A stretch of 64,000 nt of DNA, from positions 10,552 through 74,551 of the forward strand of contig JBBCAX010000253.1 of the NCBI GenBank assembly GCA_051382335.1, in the 5' to 3' direction. The translations under genes and the position numbers were made by a program. Positions 9,235-18,732 of the stretch are shown here, piece after piece. Source of the DNA: Deltaproteobacteria bacterium TL4 (lineage in GTDB: Bacteria > SAR324 > NAC60-12). How positions within the stretch are numbered: the stretch's first letter is position 1; each line of letters opens with the position of its first letter. The notes under the pieces were generated by a model, which saw only the letters and a program-made list of their open reading frames with translations, had not been told where the DNA came from and ran no database searches.

Positions 9235-10458
9235 ATGGAAAAAATCAATCATTCCACCCCTATCATCGGGATCATCCTAACAATTATTACCTTCTCTCCA
9301 CAAAGATTACTGGCTTTTGATGGTGATTATATGATTCAGGAACCTGATTTTGTTGAAGATAATTTCATTGATATTAAAGCCTATCAGCCTAATCAATTAC
9401 GTCAACGGGAGTGGAATCAAACGCTTAATGGACTCCGTATCGTAGAAGGCACCTTAGATATGAATTTTACTTATCTCGAGCTGGAACTTCGTCTTCAACA
9501 AAATATCAATTCAATACTCACCCTTTCTTATCACATGAAACATCATGAATTTTATGGAATCAAACCACTTCGACAACAATTGGAATTCCAGTTACACCTC
9601 CAGCAATACGTTCATCTCTCGATTGTAGGTTTTCCCGCGTATGATAAAAGGACAGGTGATTTAGGAGGTGCAATCACGTTGGGAGTTCCTGATGAAACCA
9701 CCCTAAGATTTGAGCGTATCGCCCAAGATGTTTACTATAATGAAAAGAATTTTGAGACAGACCGATACATAACGCCCCCTATTGAAGATCGAATTAGCGT
9801 AACGGTAAATTTGAAGCCTGATTTGCGTTTTTGGGCGGATGTTCTTCTGGAACACCCTATGGAACAATTCTTTCCTGAGACTGACATGAACTTTAACGCT
9901 GAAGGCAAAACGGTTGAGTGGCGTTTGGAGCATTTTCTTTCAGATTATGAGGTTTGGGGGTTAAATCACAAAGAAGAGGTGAGTGAAAAATCCTGGAATG
10001 CCTCTAATAGTGAGGAAGCCTCACAAAAAATAAAATTCCTTTCAGCGGAGTTCTTTTGGATACAGCAAGCGCCGTTTTTTAATAATGTGCCTCTGATCGC
10101 AGGAACTCAGTTCGATCACTTTGAAAATAAAGTTAAACCTAAAAATCATGAATTGCCGGAATATAACTATTCCTTAACAACCTGGCAAATTTACAGTTTT
10201 TTTATACACCATTGGAATCCTGAATTGGACTGGGAGTACGCGTTTTTTTTCGGTGAAGTCAATGAAACGAAAGATTACGAATCAGACGTAACTGAAGATA
10301 TCAATAAATATGGCTTAGAACATGCGTTTAGGCTCAGTTGGGAATGGCATTCTTCAGATCATCACTCCTCCCTTACCTTTATCAGCAGTTGGAGCTTGGA
10401 TGAATTAAAAAACACAGCATGGGATGGTGGTGGCACAACCGTACAGATCAAATATTAG
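9235..10458 (+). CDS. Exported hypothetical protein, probable outer-membrane beta-barrel
   Basis: Signal-peptide-like N-terminus, alternating beta-strand patterns and a terminal aromatic residue (TTVQIKY). Confidence 0.55.
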   Translation: MEKINHSTPIIGIILTIITFSPQRLLAFDGDYMIQEPDFVEDNFIDIKAYQPNQLRQREWNQTLNGLRIVEGTLDMNFTYLELELRLQQNINSILTLSYHMKHHEFYGIKPLRQQLEFQLHLQQYVHLSIVGFPAYDKRTGDLGGAITLGVPDETTLRFERIAQDVYYNEKNFETDRYITPPIEDRISVTVNLKPDLRFWADVLLEHPMEQFFPETDMNFNAEGKTVEWRLEHFLSDYEVWGLNHKEEVSEKSWNASNSEEASQKIKFLSAEFFWIQQAPFFNNVPLIAGTQFDHFENKVKPKNHELPEYNYSLTTWQIYSFFIHHWNPELDWEYAFFFGEVNETKDYESDVTEDINKYGLEHAFRLSWEWHSSDHHSSLTFISSWSLDELKNTAWDGGGTTVQIKY

Positions 10459-10710
10459 CGCAAGCATCCCTTCTGAAGTAAGCCTAAAACATTAGAAGCC
10501 CAATACACCTAAAAATAGTAAAAATCGTATCAGATCCGTCCAATAAAAAGAAAAAAGTTTTTTATGGCAACGAGGGTGAGTTGGTATAACTGGTTGAATG
10601 GATCTTACTCCTAAAAAATAAAAATTGTCTAGACATTGGAGCCTATTTAATCGAAATTGATCCAACCACTCTCTCTGCGAAACTTATTAAAAATATAATG
10701 AGAACTCTGT

Positions 10711-12129
10711 ATGCCCTCTTCTCCCGAATCCTATCAAAATAAATGGCTGGTCATGTCCGCTGTGGCAATGGGACTTTTTTTAGCCACTATTGACGGAAGC
10801 ATTGTCAATATTGCGCTACCAACTATTGTCAAAGCCTTAAATACTGATTTTTCAGTGGTACAATGGGTGGTGTTGTCCTATTTATTGACAGTGACGACCT
10901 TGATGTTGAGCATTGGACGTCTAGCGGATATAATGGGTAAAAAATCACTTTATTTATCGGGGTTTATAATTTTCACCATAAGTTCTGTTTTGTGTGGTTT
11001 GGCTCATGGCGTCTATTGGCTCATCGTTTTGAGGATTGTGCAAGGTATTGGTTCCGCCCTGATTATGGCGTTGGGAGCTGCGATCATTACTGAGGCCTTT
11101 CCGCCTACTGAGCGAGGAAAAGCCATGGGGGTGGTTGGGACGATCGTCTCTTTGGGCATCATTACGGGGCCGACCCTGGGCGGGATTATCATTGAATTAC
11201 TTTCGTGGCGCTGGATATTTCTTGTCAATCTTCCCGTGGGGATCGTTGGTATTTACATGGTCATTCGTTTCATCCCTTCCCAAAAACCCAGAGGTGGACA
11301 AAAATTTGATTACTGGGGGGCGATTACGCTGTTTATTAGTTTGAGCTCTTTCCTTTTGGCTCTAACTTTTGGACAGCAAAAAGGCTTTTTAGAAAAATCA
11401 GTTATCGCTCTTTTTGTAAGTTGGTTCATCTCCCTGATTGTATTTTTAGTCATTGAAAAAAAGACGACGGAACCCGTCATTAAATTAAGTATTTTTAAAA
11501 ATAAAATGTTCAGTTACAGCGTGGGCTCAGGCTTTATGACCTTCGTGGCAGTTTCAGGCAGTTCTATTTTAATGCCTTTTTTTATGGAAAATGTCCTCAA
11601 CTATACAACCTTGCATATGGGGCTATTGATGGGCATCGTTCCGTTTATGATGGGGATTTCATCTCCCCTTGCGGGACATTTTTCCGATCGTTTTGGTTCC
11701 AGAAAAATATGCCTGACCGGTTTGATTTTAATACCTATTTCCTATTTTTTGATCAGTCGCATGAACGAAGCTTCTACCGCACTTGAATACATCCTGATAG
11801 CAACGCCCTTAGGAATTGGGATGGGCATTTTTCAGGCACCCAATAATAGTGTCATTATGGGCTCTGTGCCCCGTGAAAGTCTTGGCATTGCTTCCGGTCT
11901 TTTGTCCATAACCCGAACCCTGGGGCAGACGGTGGGCATCGCTATCTTTGGCGCCATTTGGGCTACTCGAACCAGATTCTATGCAGGAGTTGACTTTGCT
12001 GGAAAAACCACGAAAACTCCTCTTCTGGCCCAGGTTTCAGCCTTTCAAGATACTTTTTTAATAGCTTCCATAATGCTAACAGTCGCCTTGATAATTTTCT
12101 TCATAGGAACCAGAAAATCTGATTATTAA
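10711..12129 (+). CDS. MFS transporter, DHA2 (EmrB/QacA) family
   Basis: Motifs DGSIVNIALP, GRLADIMG, GPTLGG, WRWIFLVNLPVG and DYWG; many hydrophobic segments. Confidence 0.92.
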   Translation: MPSSPESYQNKWLVMSAVAMGLFLATIDGSIVNIALPTIVKALNTDFSVVQWVVLSYLLTVTTLMLSIGRLADIMGKKSLYLSGFIIFTISSVLCGLAHGVYWLIVLRIVQGIGSALIMALGAAIITEAFPPTERGKAMGVVGTIVSLGIITGPTLGGIIIELLSWRWIFLVNLPVGIVGIYMVIRFIPSQKPRGGQKFDYWGAITLFISLSSFLLALTFGQQKGFLEKSVIALFVSWFISLIVFLVIEKKTTEPVIKLSIFKNKMFSYSVGSGFMTFVAVSGSSILMPFFMENVLNYTTLHMGLLMGIVPFMMGISSPLAGHFSDRFGSRKICLTGLILIPISYFLISRMNEASTALEYILIATPLGIGMGIFQAPNNSVIMGSVPRESLGIASGLLSITRTLGQTVGIAIFGAIWATRTRFYAGVDFAGKTTKTPLLAQVSAFQDTFLIASIMLTVALIIFFIGTRKSDY

Positions 12130-12399
12130 AGGGATTCTCCCCAAAAATCAGGGTAACATCGAGTTTGGTTTTTTTCTGTCCTCCCTTGCCTGATTTTTGG
12201 CGTAGCTTCTCCATCCTGTTAAAAACAAGAATTCGTTGTATTTTAGCGGTTTCAGTGAGAGTCATAAAACGGTCATTAGCTTTGGTTCCTTATGGGGTTT
12301 GGTGTTAGCGATGCTCTGATCCAATTGCTCATAACCGGTTTCAATTGCTTATTTTTTTTATTGGGAAGTCTCCTGAACATATTCCAAGACCTAAGGTTT

Positions 12400-15300
12400 A
12401 TGAAAAAAAAGTTCAAATTACTGGCTCTCCTTTTGATAGGAGGGGGCATGATTTTTCCTGTGATTCTTACGGTTTTTGTAGATCCTAATATTTTTAAAGA
12501 ACAGATTGCGTCCGTCATCAGAATGAGCATTCACAGGGATGTCCAATTTGTTGATGATTTCAAACTGTCCTATTTTCCCCAAATGGGAATCAAAACAGGA
12601 AAAATCGTTATTGGGAATCCGGAAGGTTTTGGAACACTTCCTTTTGCAACGCTTGAAAGCGCAAAAATTGGCGTTAAGCTGATTCCTCTGCTTCAAAAAA
12701 AACTGTCGCTCAAAGGGATTAAAATCATTGGCTTCAAGCTTGCGTTGGTTCGCCAAGTCGAAGGGAAGTCGAACTGGGACGATTTTGTCGCAAAGGAAGA
12801 GGAAAAAGATCTAAAAGCCAAAGAAGAAACCACACCCGTAGATTTCAGTTTTTTAAAAGATTTGCATATCCAAAAAGTTCTCCTTTCAGAAACCGAAATT
12901 TCCTATTCGGATCACCTCAAACAGCAATTTTTTTCTTTATCCGCTATTGAATTTCAAGTGGATGAAATAAAATCAGGAACTCCTTTTACGATTCATTTCA
13001 GTGGGATCGCAAACAGTAAATCCTTAAACCTCCAATCCGAATTATTGCTTGACGCCAGTTCTGTTTTTGACGTGGAACAACAGACCTTGAAACTTTCTTC
13101 GCTGACATTTAAAGCGTTTGGCCTGGAACTTCAGAGTCAGTTTTTGGTAAGTAATTTATTCAGTACTCCAACCCTCAAGGGGACGATCGCTACCCCTGGT
13201 TTCAATTTATCGCATCTGCTTCAAGAATTACAAATACCGCTGCCGCCGTTTCGGGATCCTGGCGTATTAGCTTGGGTTGAACTGAATACTCACATCAACC
13301 TCACGGAAAAGGATGTCCGTTTTTCCGGGCTTCAAATAAAGATTGATGAGACCACCCTGACGGCAAATGCGGAGTTAAGAGATTGGGCTTCTTTGGAATC
13401 CCGCTTCCAAATTAAGGTGGATCAGTTGAATCTTGACCGATATTTACCGACAAAAACGCCAACGGCGATTCCCGCCACACCAGACCTCACGGTTGCCGAG
13501 CCTTTGCCCTTTCCGCTCAAACCCTATGAAGTAAAACTTCCGCTGGAATTGCTCCGGTTCTTGAATTTTGAAGGCGAAGTCCGTTTAGGTCACTTAAATG
13601 TTCAAGGCCTTTCTATAAGCAATCTTCAAGTCCACGCCCAGGCAAAAGAGGGGTTGATTCACATCACACCGCTTCAACTGAAGGTCTTTGACGGCACGAT
13701 TACCTCAAAAATCATATTGGATCTTCGCGATAAAATAGCTGAAGACAGTCTATTCTCCCTCACTATATCGGAAATGAACACCCAACTGCTATTGAAGCAA
13801 TTCCTCAACAAGGGTCAAGGCTATGGGCCCCTCAATCTTGAGGCTCAGGTTAAATTTCAGATCCTGGATGAAAAATTGCGAATGAGTAAGGTTTCGTTGA
13901 AGGTTTTGGATACAGACGTTCAATTAACGATTAATGAAGGAACGCAAATGCTGTCGAATCCTAAAATCAAGGGGGAGTTGACGCTGGTCAACAACAGTCT
14001 TCGCAAAACGCTTCAGGTTTTTAAACCGGAGGCCCTTCAAACCCAAGACGCCTCAGCCTTATCGTTGCTTGAGGCACGAATGGCTTTCGCGCTGGCACTA
14101 GACCATCTGGAAATTTCAACACTTCAGGTGAAGCTGGATGAAACCGGACTTGAGGCTCGTGGAAGTCTTGACTATAAGCAGTTATGGAGCACAACCGTCG
14201 CCTTGAATATTGATGACCTTGATCTTGACAAGTATTTACCGCCTCCTTCCGAAAACAAAGAACCCCTCACAACACCCCCCCTACCTGAGGGGAGCACCGT
14301 GCCCTCAACGCAAACTCCATTAGTTCTGGAATCCTTCTTTGTGCCTCTCCGTAAGCTTCAGGCGAAAGGGGTTGTGAAACTGGGAAAACTCAAAGTTAAT
14401 AATTTGAAACTTGAAGAGGTCCTCATACAAATGGAGATGGACAAAGGACTTCTTAACGTTAATCCCGCAAGCCTTAACCTTTATGAAGGGCAGGTTAAAA
14501 CGAGCCTCCAACTTGATGTACGGAAGCCCAGCAATCAAAAAAGTAAAATCACGGCAAAGATCTCCGGTGTAAAAACAAGCCCTTTATTTCAGGACTTAAA
14601 ACTGCCTTCCGCCTTCGGAACCATCAATTTCAATTCGGAAATTGAGGTTGATTTGATTCAAGAAAAAATGAACACCAACGTACTGACTTTATCAGCCTTG
14701 GGAACAACGGTTTCTATAGCTCCATTGATAGGAACTCAACTTTTCAGCAGCCCTCAGTTTGAAGGCCGTCTTCAGTTGAACTCCCTGGAATTTAAAAAAG
14801 CGCTTGCGGTGTTTATCCCGGATTTTCCGATTTTTAAGGATCCCGCCGTTTTAAAATCCTTGAACGCGACGCTTGATTTTAAGGTAACCTCTGATTCCGC
14901 GGAATTATCCCAAGTTCAGATCAAGACAGAGGGGAGCACGCTGAGTTCCCATATGATACTGAACCATTATTCCAATCCTGAAATCACGTTCAAAACCAAA
15001 TTAGACCGGATCGATCTGGATCGGTATTTGCTTCAGAAAAAAACGGAACAAAAATTCGATGCAGAAACTAAAGTTTCCGATAGTAAAGAGGCGTTGCCCC
15101 AAACAGTCCCCTCGTCACAGGGGTTTGACAAACAGGGACTCTTAGCCCTGCTTCAACCGCTGAACATTGACGCGCAAGTCCTGATCACGGATCTCCGTGT
15201 GCAAAAGATTCCGGTTAAGAATATTGAACTTCAGTTTTCCTCCCAAGATGGAAAAATCAACCTTTCTCCTTTTCGTTTTGATCTGTACACAGGAACCTTT

Positions 15301-18300
15301 TCCTCAGAGTTTTATTTGGACGCGAATCCTGGTCAGGAAGGTCAGGGGTCTCTGACTTTGAATCTGAAACAAGTTCCCGCCTCTGCTTTATTTCATGATC
15401 TTTTAAACAACAATCAGGCTTTTGGCGAAATCAATGTTAACACCGAAATTTTATTTTCCCTGCTGAAAGAACGCTTAACGATTGAAAAGCTTCAGGCTTC
15501 TGTCTTGAACACGAAATTGAGTCTGGAATCAGTTGTTGGACAAAAACTGCTGACTGCGCCACTTTTTCAGGGAACCCTTAAAATGGACTCACCCCTGTTA
15601 CAAAAAGACCTTTCGGTGGTGGTGCCCTCACTGCCTTTGTTTCAAGACCCTGACGTTCTAAAAATTTTTGCCGCCCAACTCGATTTTGAAATTACGCCGT
15701 CTTACTTAAAAGGGTCCAAGCTTCTCGTAAAATTGGATGAGACAACCCTGAACGCCAAAGCGGAAGTGAACTTGAACCATGTCTATCAAGCGTCGTTTTA
15801 TGGAGATATCGATACACTCAATCTTGACCGGTACCGGGTACGTCCTGTAGCAGGAACGCCAGCGCCAGCATCCCGGAAAAAAGAGCTACCTCCCGTCAAC
15901 ACTCCCTTTAAAATTCCTTTTGAACTTTTACGGCAATTGGATTTAGAGACGTCTCTTTCCTTAAAACATTTGGTGGTGAAGCGCTTGACCTTATCGAATC
16001 TTTTCTTAAAGGCAATCGCAAGAGAGGGTTTTATAAAACTGACACCAGCCAAGGTCGAACTTTATGAGGGTTCATTGGCGACACAAATCCTGCTTGACGT
16101 CAGAGAGAAACCCACCAGGAAAAGTCAGTTCATTCTCAACGCTCAAGATATCAGAGCAGGCGCCTTATTTAAGGATTTACTTCAACAAGATCATTTTGAG
16201 GGCACCCTCCAACTCAAAATCCTGGTCGATTTTGATCCTTTTGAGGAATCCCTGGAAAGCGAAGAGTTTCAAATTTCGGCATTGGGCGCGACACTAAGAT
16301 TGTCTGCCTTAAGAGGCAGAACGTTATTGAGTAATCCACAACTCGAAGGACATTTAGAACTTCTCCCCTTTAATTTGAAAGATTCATTGAAACCCTTTCC
16401 GGCTTTACTTCCAGAACGCCAGGATCCTGAAACCCTTTCAAAGGTTGCCTCAACGTTTGACTTTCTTGTAACCCCTGATAGTTTAACCGTTCAGGAGTTA
16501 AACCTGTCTTTGGATCAAACGCAACTTAAGGGGGAACTGTTTATAGACCATTTTGAGGATCCCAAGATACAATTTCAACTTCATGTGGACGCTCTGAATG
16601 TGGATCGTTATCTTCCGGTTCCTGCCGTAAAGGTGGAAGAATCAGTGCCTGCAAGCCCAGAGATGAAACAAAACGACCTTAACACTCCGCCTCCTGTGGC
16701 CTTGGTCTCGGCGCCTGTTCCCCAAGAATTTCAAAAGACTCTCGAGGAGATCTTTGAATCCCTGAGAGCGCTTCAACTAAAAGGCCTACTTGAGGTTAAA
16801 AACTTATCGGCCCAGAAAATCAAGGTTGAAGAGGTGTTACTCCATCTCAACGCGGATCAGGGAATCCTCCAGATTTCGCCGTTACAAGTGAACCTGTATC
16901 AGGGAAATATGACTTCTGAGGCCACGCTTGATTTACGCGCCTCAGGCTCACAACCCAGCACCTTTCAATTGTCGATAAAGGGGGTACAAACGGGGACTTT
17001 AATCAAAGATTTAACCGGAAATGATAAAATCACGCTGCCTCTTGATTTTGAAAGTCAAGCACAACTCAACTTACGTGAAGAAACCTTCAAGGTGGAGCGG
17101 TTGACTTTATCCGCGGCCAATCTGCGTCTGGTGTCAAAGGAGATACAAGGCAAAACCCTCTTTAAAAATCCTCAAATCACCGGTTCTTTCAACGTGGAAC
17201 CTTTTAATCTGAGAACTCTTTTAACCGCGTTAGGACAAGCCATCCCTGAAACCAGTGACAAGAAAGTTTTAACCTCAGTCAAGGGCGATCTGAATTTTAA
17301 GCTGTCACCCCAGGCCATCGATATTCGTTCGCTACACCTTAAATTGGATGACAGTACGTTGGAAGCCTATGGCGGAATTGCTAACGTGAAAGACCCGCTT
17401 TCAACCTTCCATCTAGAAATTGATCGCCTGGATTTGGATCGATACCTTCCTCCTGTGGAGGTAAAAGCCGTCAAGGCTCAGGACGCTGCGCTGGTTGAAG
17501 AGAAGGGAACATTTGCCCGTATTGGAGACAGTATCAAAGGAAGTTTTGGAATTATTGGGAAAGGGTTTCGTTTTTTTAAAGGCTTATTGGAATATCTTTT
17601 TCAAAAAAGGGTGGATGTTGAAGAAGTGGTCACGGCTATAGCGACAGAACCTGGTGTAGACACCATGCTGTTAGAAGTCGTTCGGACGTTGAAAATGAAA
17701 GGAGATTTAAAGATCAATCAGCTAAAAGTCAGTAATCTTAAAGTTTCTGAAGTATTCACAGGCGTTTCTTTATTCAATGGGGACATCTCCATTTCACCGC
17801 TCAGGATGCAACTGTATGGCGGAAACGTCTCAACCTTCGCAAAAATTGATCTGCAGAAAAGCAGTACCGCCAGTAATTTGTTCCGCATCGCGGTTTATAA
17901 CGTTCAAGCCGGTCCCCTGATCGAAGACTTAACAGGGGATACCTTATTGCAAGGCCTCATTAACACCAATGCGCGTATTGCTTTTGAAGGTCTTGAGAAA
18001 CTTACCATTAAAAAAACTTTAAATGGCCGTGCGTCTTTTGACATAAAAAAGTTATTGATCAAAGATTTTGATGTGGCCAAAATATTGAGAGAACACTTTG
18101 TTTTGTTTTCTGAAAAGATCCCTGAAAAAAATCGTAAAGCCAGTGATTATGCCGACGTTCGCGGAAGCCTCAAAATTAGTGATGGACGAATCAAAAATAA
18201 TGATCTAAAAGTTAGAATGCCTCTGTTTCGTGTCACAGGGAATGGGTATGCCAGTTTACTGTCAGAAACCATTGATTATTTAATCAAAGCGAAAGTGGTA

Positions 18301-18732
18301 ACCACGATGGAAGGTCAAGGAGGGGAAGAGGATCAATCCTTATTTGGCATTACGTTACCTATCCGCGTATCAGGCACGTTCGCCGCACCCTCATTTGAAA
18401 TAGAACTTTCCGAATATTTACCTGATTTGGGAATCAAAAAGGGGTATAACGCCGTCAAAGACACCTTAGGAGCTGGCGTCGAAACGGTTGGGCAAGGCCT
18501 GAAAGCGGTAGGCTCGGGAGTCACCACCGGTATGAAAGTTGTGGGCGAAGGTGTCACGACTGGCGTCAAGGCGGTGGGGAGTACGCTCGGGGCAGGAGCG
18601 CAAGCGGTCGGTGAGGGTGTCAAATCGGTGGGTACGATGCTTGGCAATATGTTCAGTAATGAAGAAAAAACTACGGAAAAAACAGATTCACCGAAGCCAG
18701 AAACTTCTAAAAAAGAGCCCATAAAAAATTAA
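12400..18732 (+). CDS. Giant AsmA-family protein (~2110 aa) with six tandem AsmA modules
   Basis: Start reassigned to ATG 12400. N-terminal TM plus VDPNIFKEQI AsmA start, SNWDD motif, six (L/I)x(L/V)D(R/K)Y motifs, and an AsmA C-terminus (IKNNDL...LPIRVSGTFAAP). Confidence 0.85.
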   Translation: MKKKFKLLALLLIGGGMIFPVILTVFVDPNIFKEQIASVIRMSIHRDVQFVDDFKLSYFPQMGIKTGKIVIGNPEGFGTLPFATLESAKIGVKLIPLLQKKLSLKGIKIIGFKLALVRQVEGKSNWDDFVAKEEEKDLKAKEETTPVDFSFLKDLHIQKVLLSETEISYSDHLKQQFFSLSAIEFQVDEIKSGTPFTIHFSGIANSKSLNLQSELLLDASSVFDVEQQTLKLSSLTFKAFGLELQSQFLVSNLFSTPTLKGTIATPGFNLSHLLQELQIPLPPFRDPGVLAWVELNTHINLTEKDVRFSGLQIKIDETTLTANAELRDWASLESRFQIKVDQLNLDRYLPTKTPTAIPATPDLTVAEPLPFPLKPYEVKLPLELLRFLNFEGEVRLGHLNVQGLSISNLQVHAQAKEGLIHITPLQLKVFDGTITSKIILDLRDKIAEDSLFSLTISEMNTQLLLKQFLNKGQGYGPLNLEAQVKFQILDEKLRMSKVSLKVLDTDVQLTINEGTQMLSNPKIKGELTLVNNSLRKTLQVFKPEALQTQDASALSLLEARMAFALALDHLEISTLQVKLDETGLEARGSLDYKQLWSTTVALNIDDLDLDKYLPPPSENKEPLTTPPLPEGSTVPSTQTPLVLESFFVPLRKLQAKGVVKLGKLKVNNLKLEEVLIQMEMDKGLLNVNPASLNLYEGQVKTSLQLDVRKPSNQKSKITAKISGVKTSPLFQDLKLPSAFGTINFNSEIEVDLIQEKMNTNVLTLSALGTTVSIAPLIGTQLFSSPQFEGRLQLNSLEFKKALAVFIPDFPIFKDPAVLKSLNATLDFKVTSDSAELSQVQIKTEGSTLSSHMILNHYSNPEITFKTKLDRIDLDRYLLQKKTEQKFDAETKVSDSKEALPQTVPSSQGFDKQGLLALLQPLNIDAQVLITDLRVQKIPVKNIELQFSSQDGKINLSPFRFDLYTGTFSSEFYLDANPGQEGQGSLTLNLKQVPASALFHDLLNNNQAFGEINVNTEILFSLLKERLTIEKLQASVLNTKLSLESVVGQKLLTAPLFQGTLKMDSPLLQKDLSVVVPSLPLFQDPDVLKIFAAQLDFEITPSYLKGSKLLVKLDETTLNAKAEVNLNHVYQASFYGDIDTLNLDRYRVRPVAGTPAPASRKKELPPVNTPFKIPFELLRQLDLETSLSLKHLVVKRLTLSNLFLKAIAREGFIKLTPAKVELYEGSLATQILLDVREKPTRKSQFILNAQDIRAGALFKDLLQQDHFEGTLQLKILVDFDPFEESLESEEFQISALGATLRLSALRGRTLLSNPQLEGHLELLPFNLKDSLKPFPALLPERQDPETLSKVASTFDFLVTPDSLTVQELNLSLDQTQLKGELFIDHFEDPKIQFQLHVDALNVDRYLPVPAVKVEESVPASPEMKQNDLNTPPPVALVSAPVPQEFQKTLEEIFESLRALQLKGLLEVKNLSAQKIKVEEVLLHLNADQGILQISPLQVNLYQGNMTSEATLDLRASGSQPSTFQLSIKGVQTGTLIKDLTGNDKITLPLDFESQAQLNLREETFKVERLTLSAANLRLVSKEIQGKTLFKNPQITGSFNVEPFNLRTLLTALGQAIPETSDKKVLTSVKGDLNFKLSPQAIDIRSLHLKLDDSTLEAYGGIANVKDPLSTFHLEIDRLDLDRYLPPVEVKAVKAQDAALVEEKGTFARIGDSIKGSFGIIGKGFRFFKGLLEYLFQKRVDVEEVVTAIATEPGVDTMLLEVVRTLKMKGDLKINQLKVSNLKVSEVFTGVSLFNGDISISPLRMQLYGGNVSTFAKIDLQKSSTASNLFRIAVYNVQAGPLIEDLTGDTLLQGLINTNARIAFEGLEKLTIKKTLNGRASFDIKKLLIKDFDVAKILREHFVLFSEKIPEKNRKASDYADVRGSLKISDGRIKNNDLKVRMPLFRVTGNGYASLLSETIDYLIKAKVVTTMEGQGGEEDQSLFGITLPIRVSGTFAAPSFEIELSEYLPDLGIKKGYNAVKDTLGAGVETVGQGLKAVGSGVTTGMKVVGEGVTTGVKAVGSTLGAGAQAVGEGVKSVGTMLGNMFSNEEKTTEKTDSPKPETSKKEPIKN

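Follow-up and report, generated by a model that had tools for sequence, protein, structure and literature searches.

The 64,000-nucleotide stretch analysed here (the window; positions 10,552 to 74,551 of contig JBBCAX010000253.1, assembly GCA_051382335.1, Deltaproteobacteria bacterium TL4 of the SAR324 lineage) carries the gene for P0001, an AsmA-family protein built from six tandem modules. The open reading frame is intact over 2,110 codons; an in-frame ATG is also present upstream at 12292, and the starts of the homologues correspond to 12400. Residues 7-25 are the sole 19-residue window of the protein with a Kyte-Doolittle (KD) value above 1.6, and this single N-terminal hydrophobic anchor is followed by a large soluble region, as is typical of AsmA-type proteins. 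For the AsmA N-terminal domain the label Chorein-N-like was borrowed from PMC10345924. The features of the protein, of its neighbours and of the compared loci are collected in Table 1.

Table 1. Features of the AsmA gene and of compared loci. Positions refer to the window unless a locus (L) is given; G000 is the host genome, other G numbers are related genomes and C numbers are contigs; aa, amino acids.
Feature	Position	Strand	Basis or remark
Gene for P0001, 2,110-aa AsmA-family protein	12400..18732	+	Open frame; PF05170 and NF008091 profile matches
Probable inner-membrane anchor, aa 7-25	12418..12474	+	Hydrophobic segment, KD 2.51
AsmA N-terminal domain, aa 26-212	12475..13035	+	PF05170 positions 1-197 match aa 1-225
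Module 1, aa 213-476	13036..13827	+	Motif cut and pairwise alignment
Module 2, aa 477-740	13828..14619	+	Motif cut and pairwise alignment
Module 3, aa 741-1009	14620..15426	+	Motif cut and pairwise alignment
Module 4, aa 1010-1268	15427..16203	+	Pairwise alignment; AlphaFold model of aa 1010-2110
Module 5, aa 1269-1546, 13 predicted strands	16204..17037	+	Alignment; both AlphaFold models
Module 6, aa 1547-1847, 13 predicted strands, loop lengthened	17038..17940	+	Alignment; both AlphaFold models
Hydrophobic amphipathic helix in module-6 loop, aa 1718-1735, candidate outer-membrane contact	17551..17604	+	
AsmA C-terminal cap, aa 1848-2001, 8 predicted strands	17941..18402	+	PF05170 positions 444-607; AlphaFold
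Gly/Val-rich tail, aa 2025-2090, candidate membrane-binding helix	18472..18669	+	11-residue periodicity
Exported-looking, aromatic-rich 407-aa protein ending in Tyr	9235-10458	+	
Major facilitator superfamily (MFS) transporter	10711-12129	+	Upstream, same strand
Kinase-AAA-GAF-SpoIIE signalling protein, 1,778 aa	18751-24087	+	Starts 18 bp past the AsmA stop
Conserved exported protein, G007 and G016	L017:10399-11589, L018:4235-5305	-	Directly ahead of the AsmA gene
GspD secretin, 942-aa frame, G000 (C285)	L125:7088-9913	-	Six Secretin_N matches; TIGR02517 above cut-off
YhdP-like, 2,144-aa frame, G007	L021:6862-13293		Large internal duplication
YhdP-like, 2,129-aa frame, G016	L122:2909-9295		Large internal duplication
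YhdP-like, 2,730-aa frame, G003	L121:4692-12881		Large internal duplication
DUF748 protein, 2,199-aa frame, G008	L020:4775-11371		Repeated modules; weak OmpA-like C-terminal match
DUF748 protein, 1,410-aa frame, G016	L022:2877-7106		Repeated modules; weak OmpA-like C-terminal match
LptA, two jelly-roll domains, G000 (C123)	L118:1538-3898	+	About 400 aa of helical-looking ~65-aa repeats between
LptA, two jelly-roll domains, G009	L119:2396-4690	-	About 400 aa of helical-looking ~65-aa repeats between

Exactly six copies of the [LI]x[LV]D[RK]Y motif are present, as claimed in a first-pass annotation of the sequence, at residues 343, 607, 871, 1140, 1399 and 1677 (nucleotides 13426, 14218, 15010, 15817, 16594 and 17428; the positions given there were one codon late), with a spacing of 792, 792, 807, 777 and 834 bp that agrees with the 777-834 bp reported. 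The modules were revealed by cutting the chain at this motif; self-BLASTP and a single-sequence hidden Markov model self-search hid the repeats. The modules obtained are 259-301 aa long, and all 15 pairs were aligned end to end at 23-31% identity with 69-131 bits, compared with at best 18.9 bits in 30 shuffles. All junctions share one register in the alignment, and all six modules are intact, with no strand columns lost. The upstream motifs that had been said to accompany each copy are present in partly degenerate form: the strict LD[EQD][TS]xL was found in four of the six modules (module 1 reads IDETTL and module 3 TEGSTL), and the D-P-x-x-L-like motif varies from module 1 to module 6 as DPGVL, DASAL, DPAVL, DPDVL, DPETL and DKKVL. 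At the DNA level the gene shows almost no self-similarity (76% over 45 bp at best), and the repeats are therefore old; an assembly artefact or a recent duplication was rejected on this ground and on that of the module identities.

The assignment to the AsmA family, likewise made at first reading, is confirmed by PF05170 with 335.5 bits in seven stretches (cut-off 29.8). NF008091, the equivalog for E. coli-type AsmA, gave 263 bits in seven stretches and stayed under its cut-off of 412, and DUF748 (PF05359) gave 45.4 bits on the N-terminal part only, under the 50-bit threshold. No match of the YhdP profile (PF13116) was found on P0001, and none of TamB (PF04357) either on P0001 or elsewhere in the host genome (100% complete, 445 contigs), in which P0001 is the sole PF05170 gene found. 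The ESM Atlas returned AsmA clusters only, at a recognition score under its reliable range, and a sequence search of the PDB gave no match for P0001 among solved structures.

Two AlphaFold models were generated. The model of modules 5 and 6 was built from 43 sequences, which covered module 5 to a depth of about 8-12 rows, and reached a predicted local distance difference test (pLDDT) value of 85.9 and a predicted template modelling score (pTM) of 0.70, with values of 79-94 for the blocks at the junction; its modules consist of 13 strands each, grouped 4+4+5. The model of residues 1010-2110 was built from 72 sequences, with only about two rows on module 4, and had a pLDDT of 75.3. In this model module 4 is folded like modules 5 and 6, the cap has eight strands, and the junctions between modules 4 and 5, modules 5 and 6, and module 6 and the cap are all folded as strands. 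In line with the lengthened groove proposed in the first-pass annotation, the models predict one antiparallel beta-sheet that follows the chain from module 4 to the cap. A bias between strand faces was found in all six modules, with 56-65% hydrophobic residues on one face and 26-35% on the opposite one. The loops after the motif have low confidence in both models (below 50 in the longer one). When the model of modules 5 and 6 was searched with Foldseek, LPD-3 was the top hit (E 7.6e-6) and TamB was second and fourth (3.5e-4 and 8.9e-4). Structure alignments were obtained with TamB over model residues 20-364 (Z 8.8, root-mean-square deviation (rmsd) 6.5, 213 aligned) and with ATG2A over residues 17-381 (Z 7.4, rmsd 5.5, 233 aligned), and both cross the module 5/6 junction near model residue 279.

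Two segments towards the C-terminus are candidates for contact with a membrane. The helix in the module-6 loop has a hydrophobic moment of 0.60 and a mean hydrophobicity of 0.72, with low pLDDT in both models, and a comparable segment is present in the G007 orthologue, in its last module. In the tail, residue identity is 33% at periods 11 and 22 versus 7-9% at periods 10 and 12, and its pLDDT is below 50 in the longer model.

The length of the groove was estimated from strand numbers, namely 78 in the modules, 8 in the cap and an estimated 10 or so in the N-terminal domain, about 96 altogether. YhdP has 60 strands over 250 Å (PMC10592960), and at this ratio the groove of P0001 would measure about 40 nm if straight, compared with 25 nm for YhdP, and each 13-strand module would add about 5.5 nm. 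By the same arithmetic an AsmA with a single module would measure about 13 nm, and about three modules would reach 25 nm.

Six modules are rare among the relatives of P0001, as a comparison of module numbers confirmed. Among the best 80 nearest GTDB loci listed, a single full module was counted in 79 and two in the remaining one. A module profile of which P0001 and P0003 form part was run over 1.84 billion representatives and gave 8,479 matches; among the best 150, one module core was counted in 84, two in 56, three in 6, four in 2, five in 1 and six in P0001 alone. The two four-core proteins of this set have partial cores and at most 1,400 aa, and apart from P0001 and P0003 none of the 150 is longer than 1,477 aa. 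Divergent multi-module proteins would rank below these 150, for example P0002 and P0026, which have three modules each at 24-46 bits per module. Word-indexed homologue searches, the results of which were crowded, gave nothing above five modules. Two- and three-module AsmAs make up 62 of the best 150 matches, and two-module proteins of 1,100-1,260 aa, about the size of YhdP, are numerous; amplification is therefore a recurring theme of which only the extent is extreme in P0001. A second route to AsmA extension is the repetition of part of a module (about 100-200 aa), by which P0004, P0006, P0012, P0075 and P0076 are lengthened.

Orthologues were found in only two of 41 related genomes, G007 and G016, which belong to one sister genus in the same family as the host. 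The G007 protein is 1,690 aa long, and two of its five modules are short; in the G016 protein five modules are followed by the beginning of a sixth, where the contig stops. A quick tree was made from 48 modules, with supports from the Shimodaira-Hasegawa-like approximate likelihood-ratio test; in it, modules 1-4 of G007 and G016 pair by position (98-99), the ten modules of both genomes group at 92, and modules 2-5 of P0001 group at 91; there was no support for all six modules of P0001 as one group. Separate expansions in the host and in the sister genus are likely.

The first-pass annotation had also suggested a wide periplasm, for which separate support comes from the type of secretin encoded by the host. 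Its GspD has six Secretin_N matches, as do the secretins of G007, G016 and G010, while five were found in G003 and eight N-ring matches in a 1,171-aa frame of G028. At least five matches are present in 29 of 32 genomes of the family; of two other families, one has three matches in 7 of 10 genomes and the second has three in 13 of 16. These per-genome counts may include a second secretin. The PilQ of Thermus, 350 Å long and composed of six rings, spans a wide periplasm (PMC5745081). Read from its domain matches, the six-ring GspD would serve as a separate ruler and supports a wide periplasm, as the lengthened secretion channel of the lineage suggests.

Other envelope proteins of these relatives are lengthened as well. 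YhdP-like matches were found in 13 of 79 genomes, with frames of 1,498 (host, contig C121), 1,509, 1,499, 1,416, 2,144, 2,129 and 2,730 aa in seven large-genome relatives and of 1,125-1,277 aa in five small-genome relatives; the internal duplications cover about 680 and 1,090 aa. LptA has two jelly-roll matches in many genomes of the phylum. One copy of its ~65-aa repeat also stands ahead of the first jelly-roll domain, in G007 too. MCE proteins gave no support as a ruler, with no MlaD match in the host and single-domain matches in three relatives.

On this basis P0001 may be a lipid bridge that spans the gap between inner and outer membrane. Tandem duplication would have turned a short AsmA of about 13 nm, too short on its own, into a full-span bridge, the groove being anchored in the inner membrane and extended in steps of about 5.5 nm until, across a wide periplasm, it meets the outer membrane. 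Docking there would be achieved by the loop helix of module 6 together with the C-terminal tail, phospholipids would pass along the groove by diffusion, and the long AsmA would work beside the YhdP-like protein, the genome having yielded no TamB match. A fusion of YdbH and YhdP in Pseudomonas was functional only if long and provided with C-terminal hydrophobic helices (PMC12447247). We infer length, docking, periplasm width and cargo alike, and the account as a whole, outer-membrane docking and phospholipid cargo included, is held to be probable, if narrowly so. A wider proposal is more tentative and has rather less than an even chance in our judgement: an entire SAR324 family would have a Thermus-like periplasm of 35-40 nm, a trait legible in genome sequences by themselves, and domain duplication would have lengthened its envelope machines (GspD to six rings, LptA to two domains, and the AsmA, YhdP-like and DUF748 bridges to 1,400-2,700 aa), with the six-module AsmA, the longest true AsmA found, as a self-sufficient 40-nm bridge. 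If this were true, AsmA module number could be used as a genomic ruler of envelope width.

Several observations weigh against a full-span bridge in a wide periplasm. The pTM of the longer model falls to 0.51, and both models lie within residues 1010-2110, which comprise modules 4-6, the cap and the tail. The contrast between the strand faces is inflated by picking the face of each strand from the alignment, and the hydrophobic face bears 4-11 charged residues per module. Foldseek TM-scores with solved bridges are low (0.15-0.19), and by Z the structure alignments are led by ApoB100 (9.7, rmsd 14.7), with many beta-barrels at Z 6-8; the fold matches are therefore modest. TamB and YhdP differ in span through superhelicity at equal residue counts (PMC10345924), and coiling could by analogy shorten the P0001 rod as well. 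AsmA proper itself is described as without an established function (PMC11126948, PMC10900882). As for the periplasm, BamA, judged by its POTRA count, is of ordinary length in the 32 family genomes searched, and bridge lengths disagree within genomes: the host has an AsmA of 2,110 aa and a YhdP-like protein of 1,474 aa (frame 1,498), whereas in G007 the order is opposite (1,690 versus about 2,120 aa). The host, G007 and G016 share the two jelly-rolls of LptA with most relatives, and this count does not separate the genomes with a modular AsmA, and the long secretin is found family-wide while the AsmA orthologue is found in three genomes only. No AsmA match was obtained in 14 genomes of genus g11; with these queries this genus and several other genera had neither an AsmA nor a YhdP match, TamB not having been searched there.

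Alternatively, the groove would be continuous and strongly superhelical or tilted and would span an ordinary periplasm of 21-25 nm, duplication having only freed a short AsmA from its partner. The shortening of TamB by superhelicity (PMC10345924), the pTM of the three-module model, the ordinary BamA and the abundance of two-module AsmAs of about YhdP size would all fit; yet the six-ring GspD and the relatives' YhdP-like proteins of 2,100-2,730 aa are left unexplained, and about three modules would already suffice for 25 nm by strand count. This arrangement is considered unlikely, though not negligible. Rather unlikely, too, is a long groove that retains the role of AsmA proper and serves a cargo other than bulk phospholipid, e.g. 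by guiding lipoproteins, lipopolysaccharide-related lipids or other acylated cargo. Lipid bridges are the best fold matches of P0001, and AsmA is known to differ from its essential paralogues mainly in length (PMC12447247, PMC11126948), both of which speak against such a cargo; on the other side, E. coli AsmA is reported to lack genetic redundancy with YhdP, TamB and YdbH (PMC10345924, PMC11126948), the AsmA-like GspN was reported to aid lipoprotein transport, and the host already has a YhdP-like gene. That the modules multiplied by nearly neutral slippage, in a gene the cell can do without, is quite improbable: module number does range from 1 to 6, AsmA is patchy (any match in 22 of 79 genomes of the phylum) and the gene neighbourhood of the host is unlike that of G007 and G016, but the six modules have stayed intact at 23-31% identity without a lost strand column, G007 and G016 have their modules in the same order, and the family also shows lengthening of three paralogue families and of the secretin.

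An unusual membrane target, also raised by the first-pass annotation, is not supported, given the usual inner-membrane anchor and the failure of the modular AsmA to track the magnetosome marker. Magnetochrome matches mark 4 of 79 genomes (the host, G007, G003 and G009), with six on host contig C333, where open reading frames at C333:11000-29000 resemble mam genes. A supply of lipids to magnetosomes or other internal membranes is very improbable, as these six matches on one contig and the marker in G007 are outweighed by G016 (88% complete) with a modular AsmA and no marker match, by G003 and G009 with the marker and no modular AsmA found, by the location of the AsmA gene and the magnetochrome cluster on different contigs, and by a topology directed into the periplasm.

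No conserved operon or partner gene was seen, the neighbours in the host differing from those in G007 and G016, and a scan for promoters and terminators was near chance. The upstream 407-aa protein has no Pfam or NCBIfam match, was not seen beside the orthologues and is, from its sequence, possibly an outer-membrane barrel. Many giants similar to the downstream kinase-AAA-GAF-SpoIIE protein are encoded elsewhere in the host genome. The exported protein ahead of the G007 and G016 genes is one that we take to be caspase-like.

A full-text literature search, in which few subscription journals and no supplements were covered, found no account of a multi-module AsmA or of SAR324 envelope width; supplementary tables of AsmA-like lengths could bear on novelty. 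P0001 is an extreme version of a known family, and the signs of a wide envelope across the bacterial family add to its interest. The tuning of bridge length to the membrane gap is called unstudied for VPS13-type proteins (PMC7613979). A natural series of one to six clean 13-strand modules makes both length tuning and the role of AsmA testable, the module could be used as a building block where a bridge of a given length is wanted, and an unusual envelope is predicted in an uncultured lineage.

Compared with known systems, P0001 is closest in layout to AsmA proper (617 aa in E. coli and 750 aa in P. aeruginosa, PA5146), in which an N-terminal anchor, the N-domain, a module with DxxxxDRYLP and a C-terminal cap follow in the same order; it differs in having six modules instead of one, in the added helix of the last loop and the 11-mer tail, and in its score under the NF008091 equivalog cut-off. 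With the YhdP, TamB and YdbH-YnbE bridges it shares a predicted repeating beta-groove, and with YhdP also distal hydrophobic helices, candidates in the case of P0001, whereas it belongs to another subfamily with clear 265-aa repeats and about 96 strands versus 60 in YhdP. Very long TamB-type proteins exist, e.g. chloroplast TIC236, and length alone is therefore not new for the clan. The eukaryotic repeating beta-groove (RBG) or bridge-like lipid transfer proteins (BLTP), such as VPS13, ATG2 and LPD-3/BLTP1, gave fold matches to the P0001 model; they grow by central internal duplication and have amphipathic end helices (PMC7613979), whereas P0001 is bacterial and has 13-strand (4+4+5) modules in place of five-strand RBG units. 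Finally, in Thermus thermophilus PilQ, which the host GspD seems to resemble and which is relevant as context alone, an envelope-spanning protein is likewise lengthened by domain repetition to suit a wide periplasm, PilQ being a secretin without a lipid groove.

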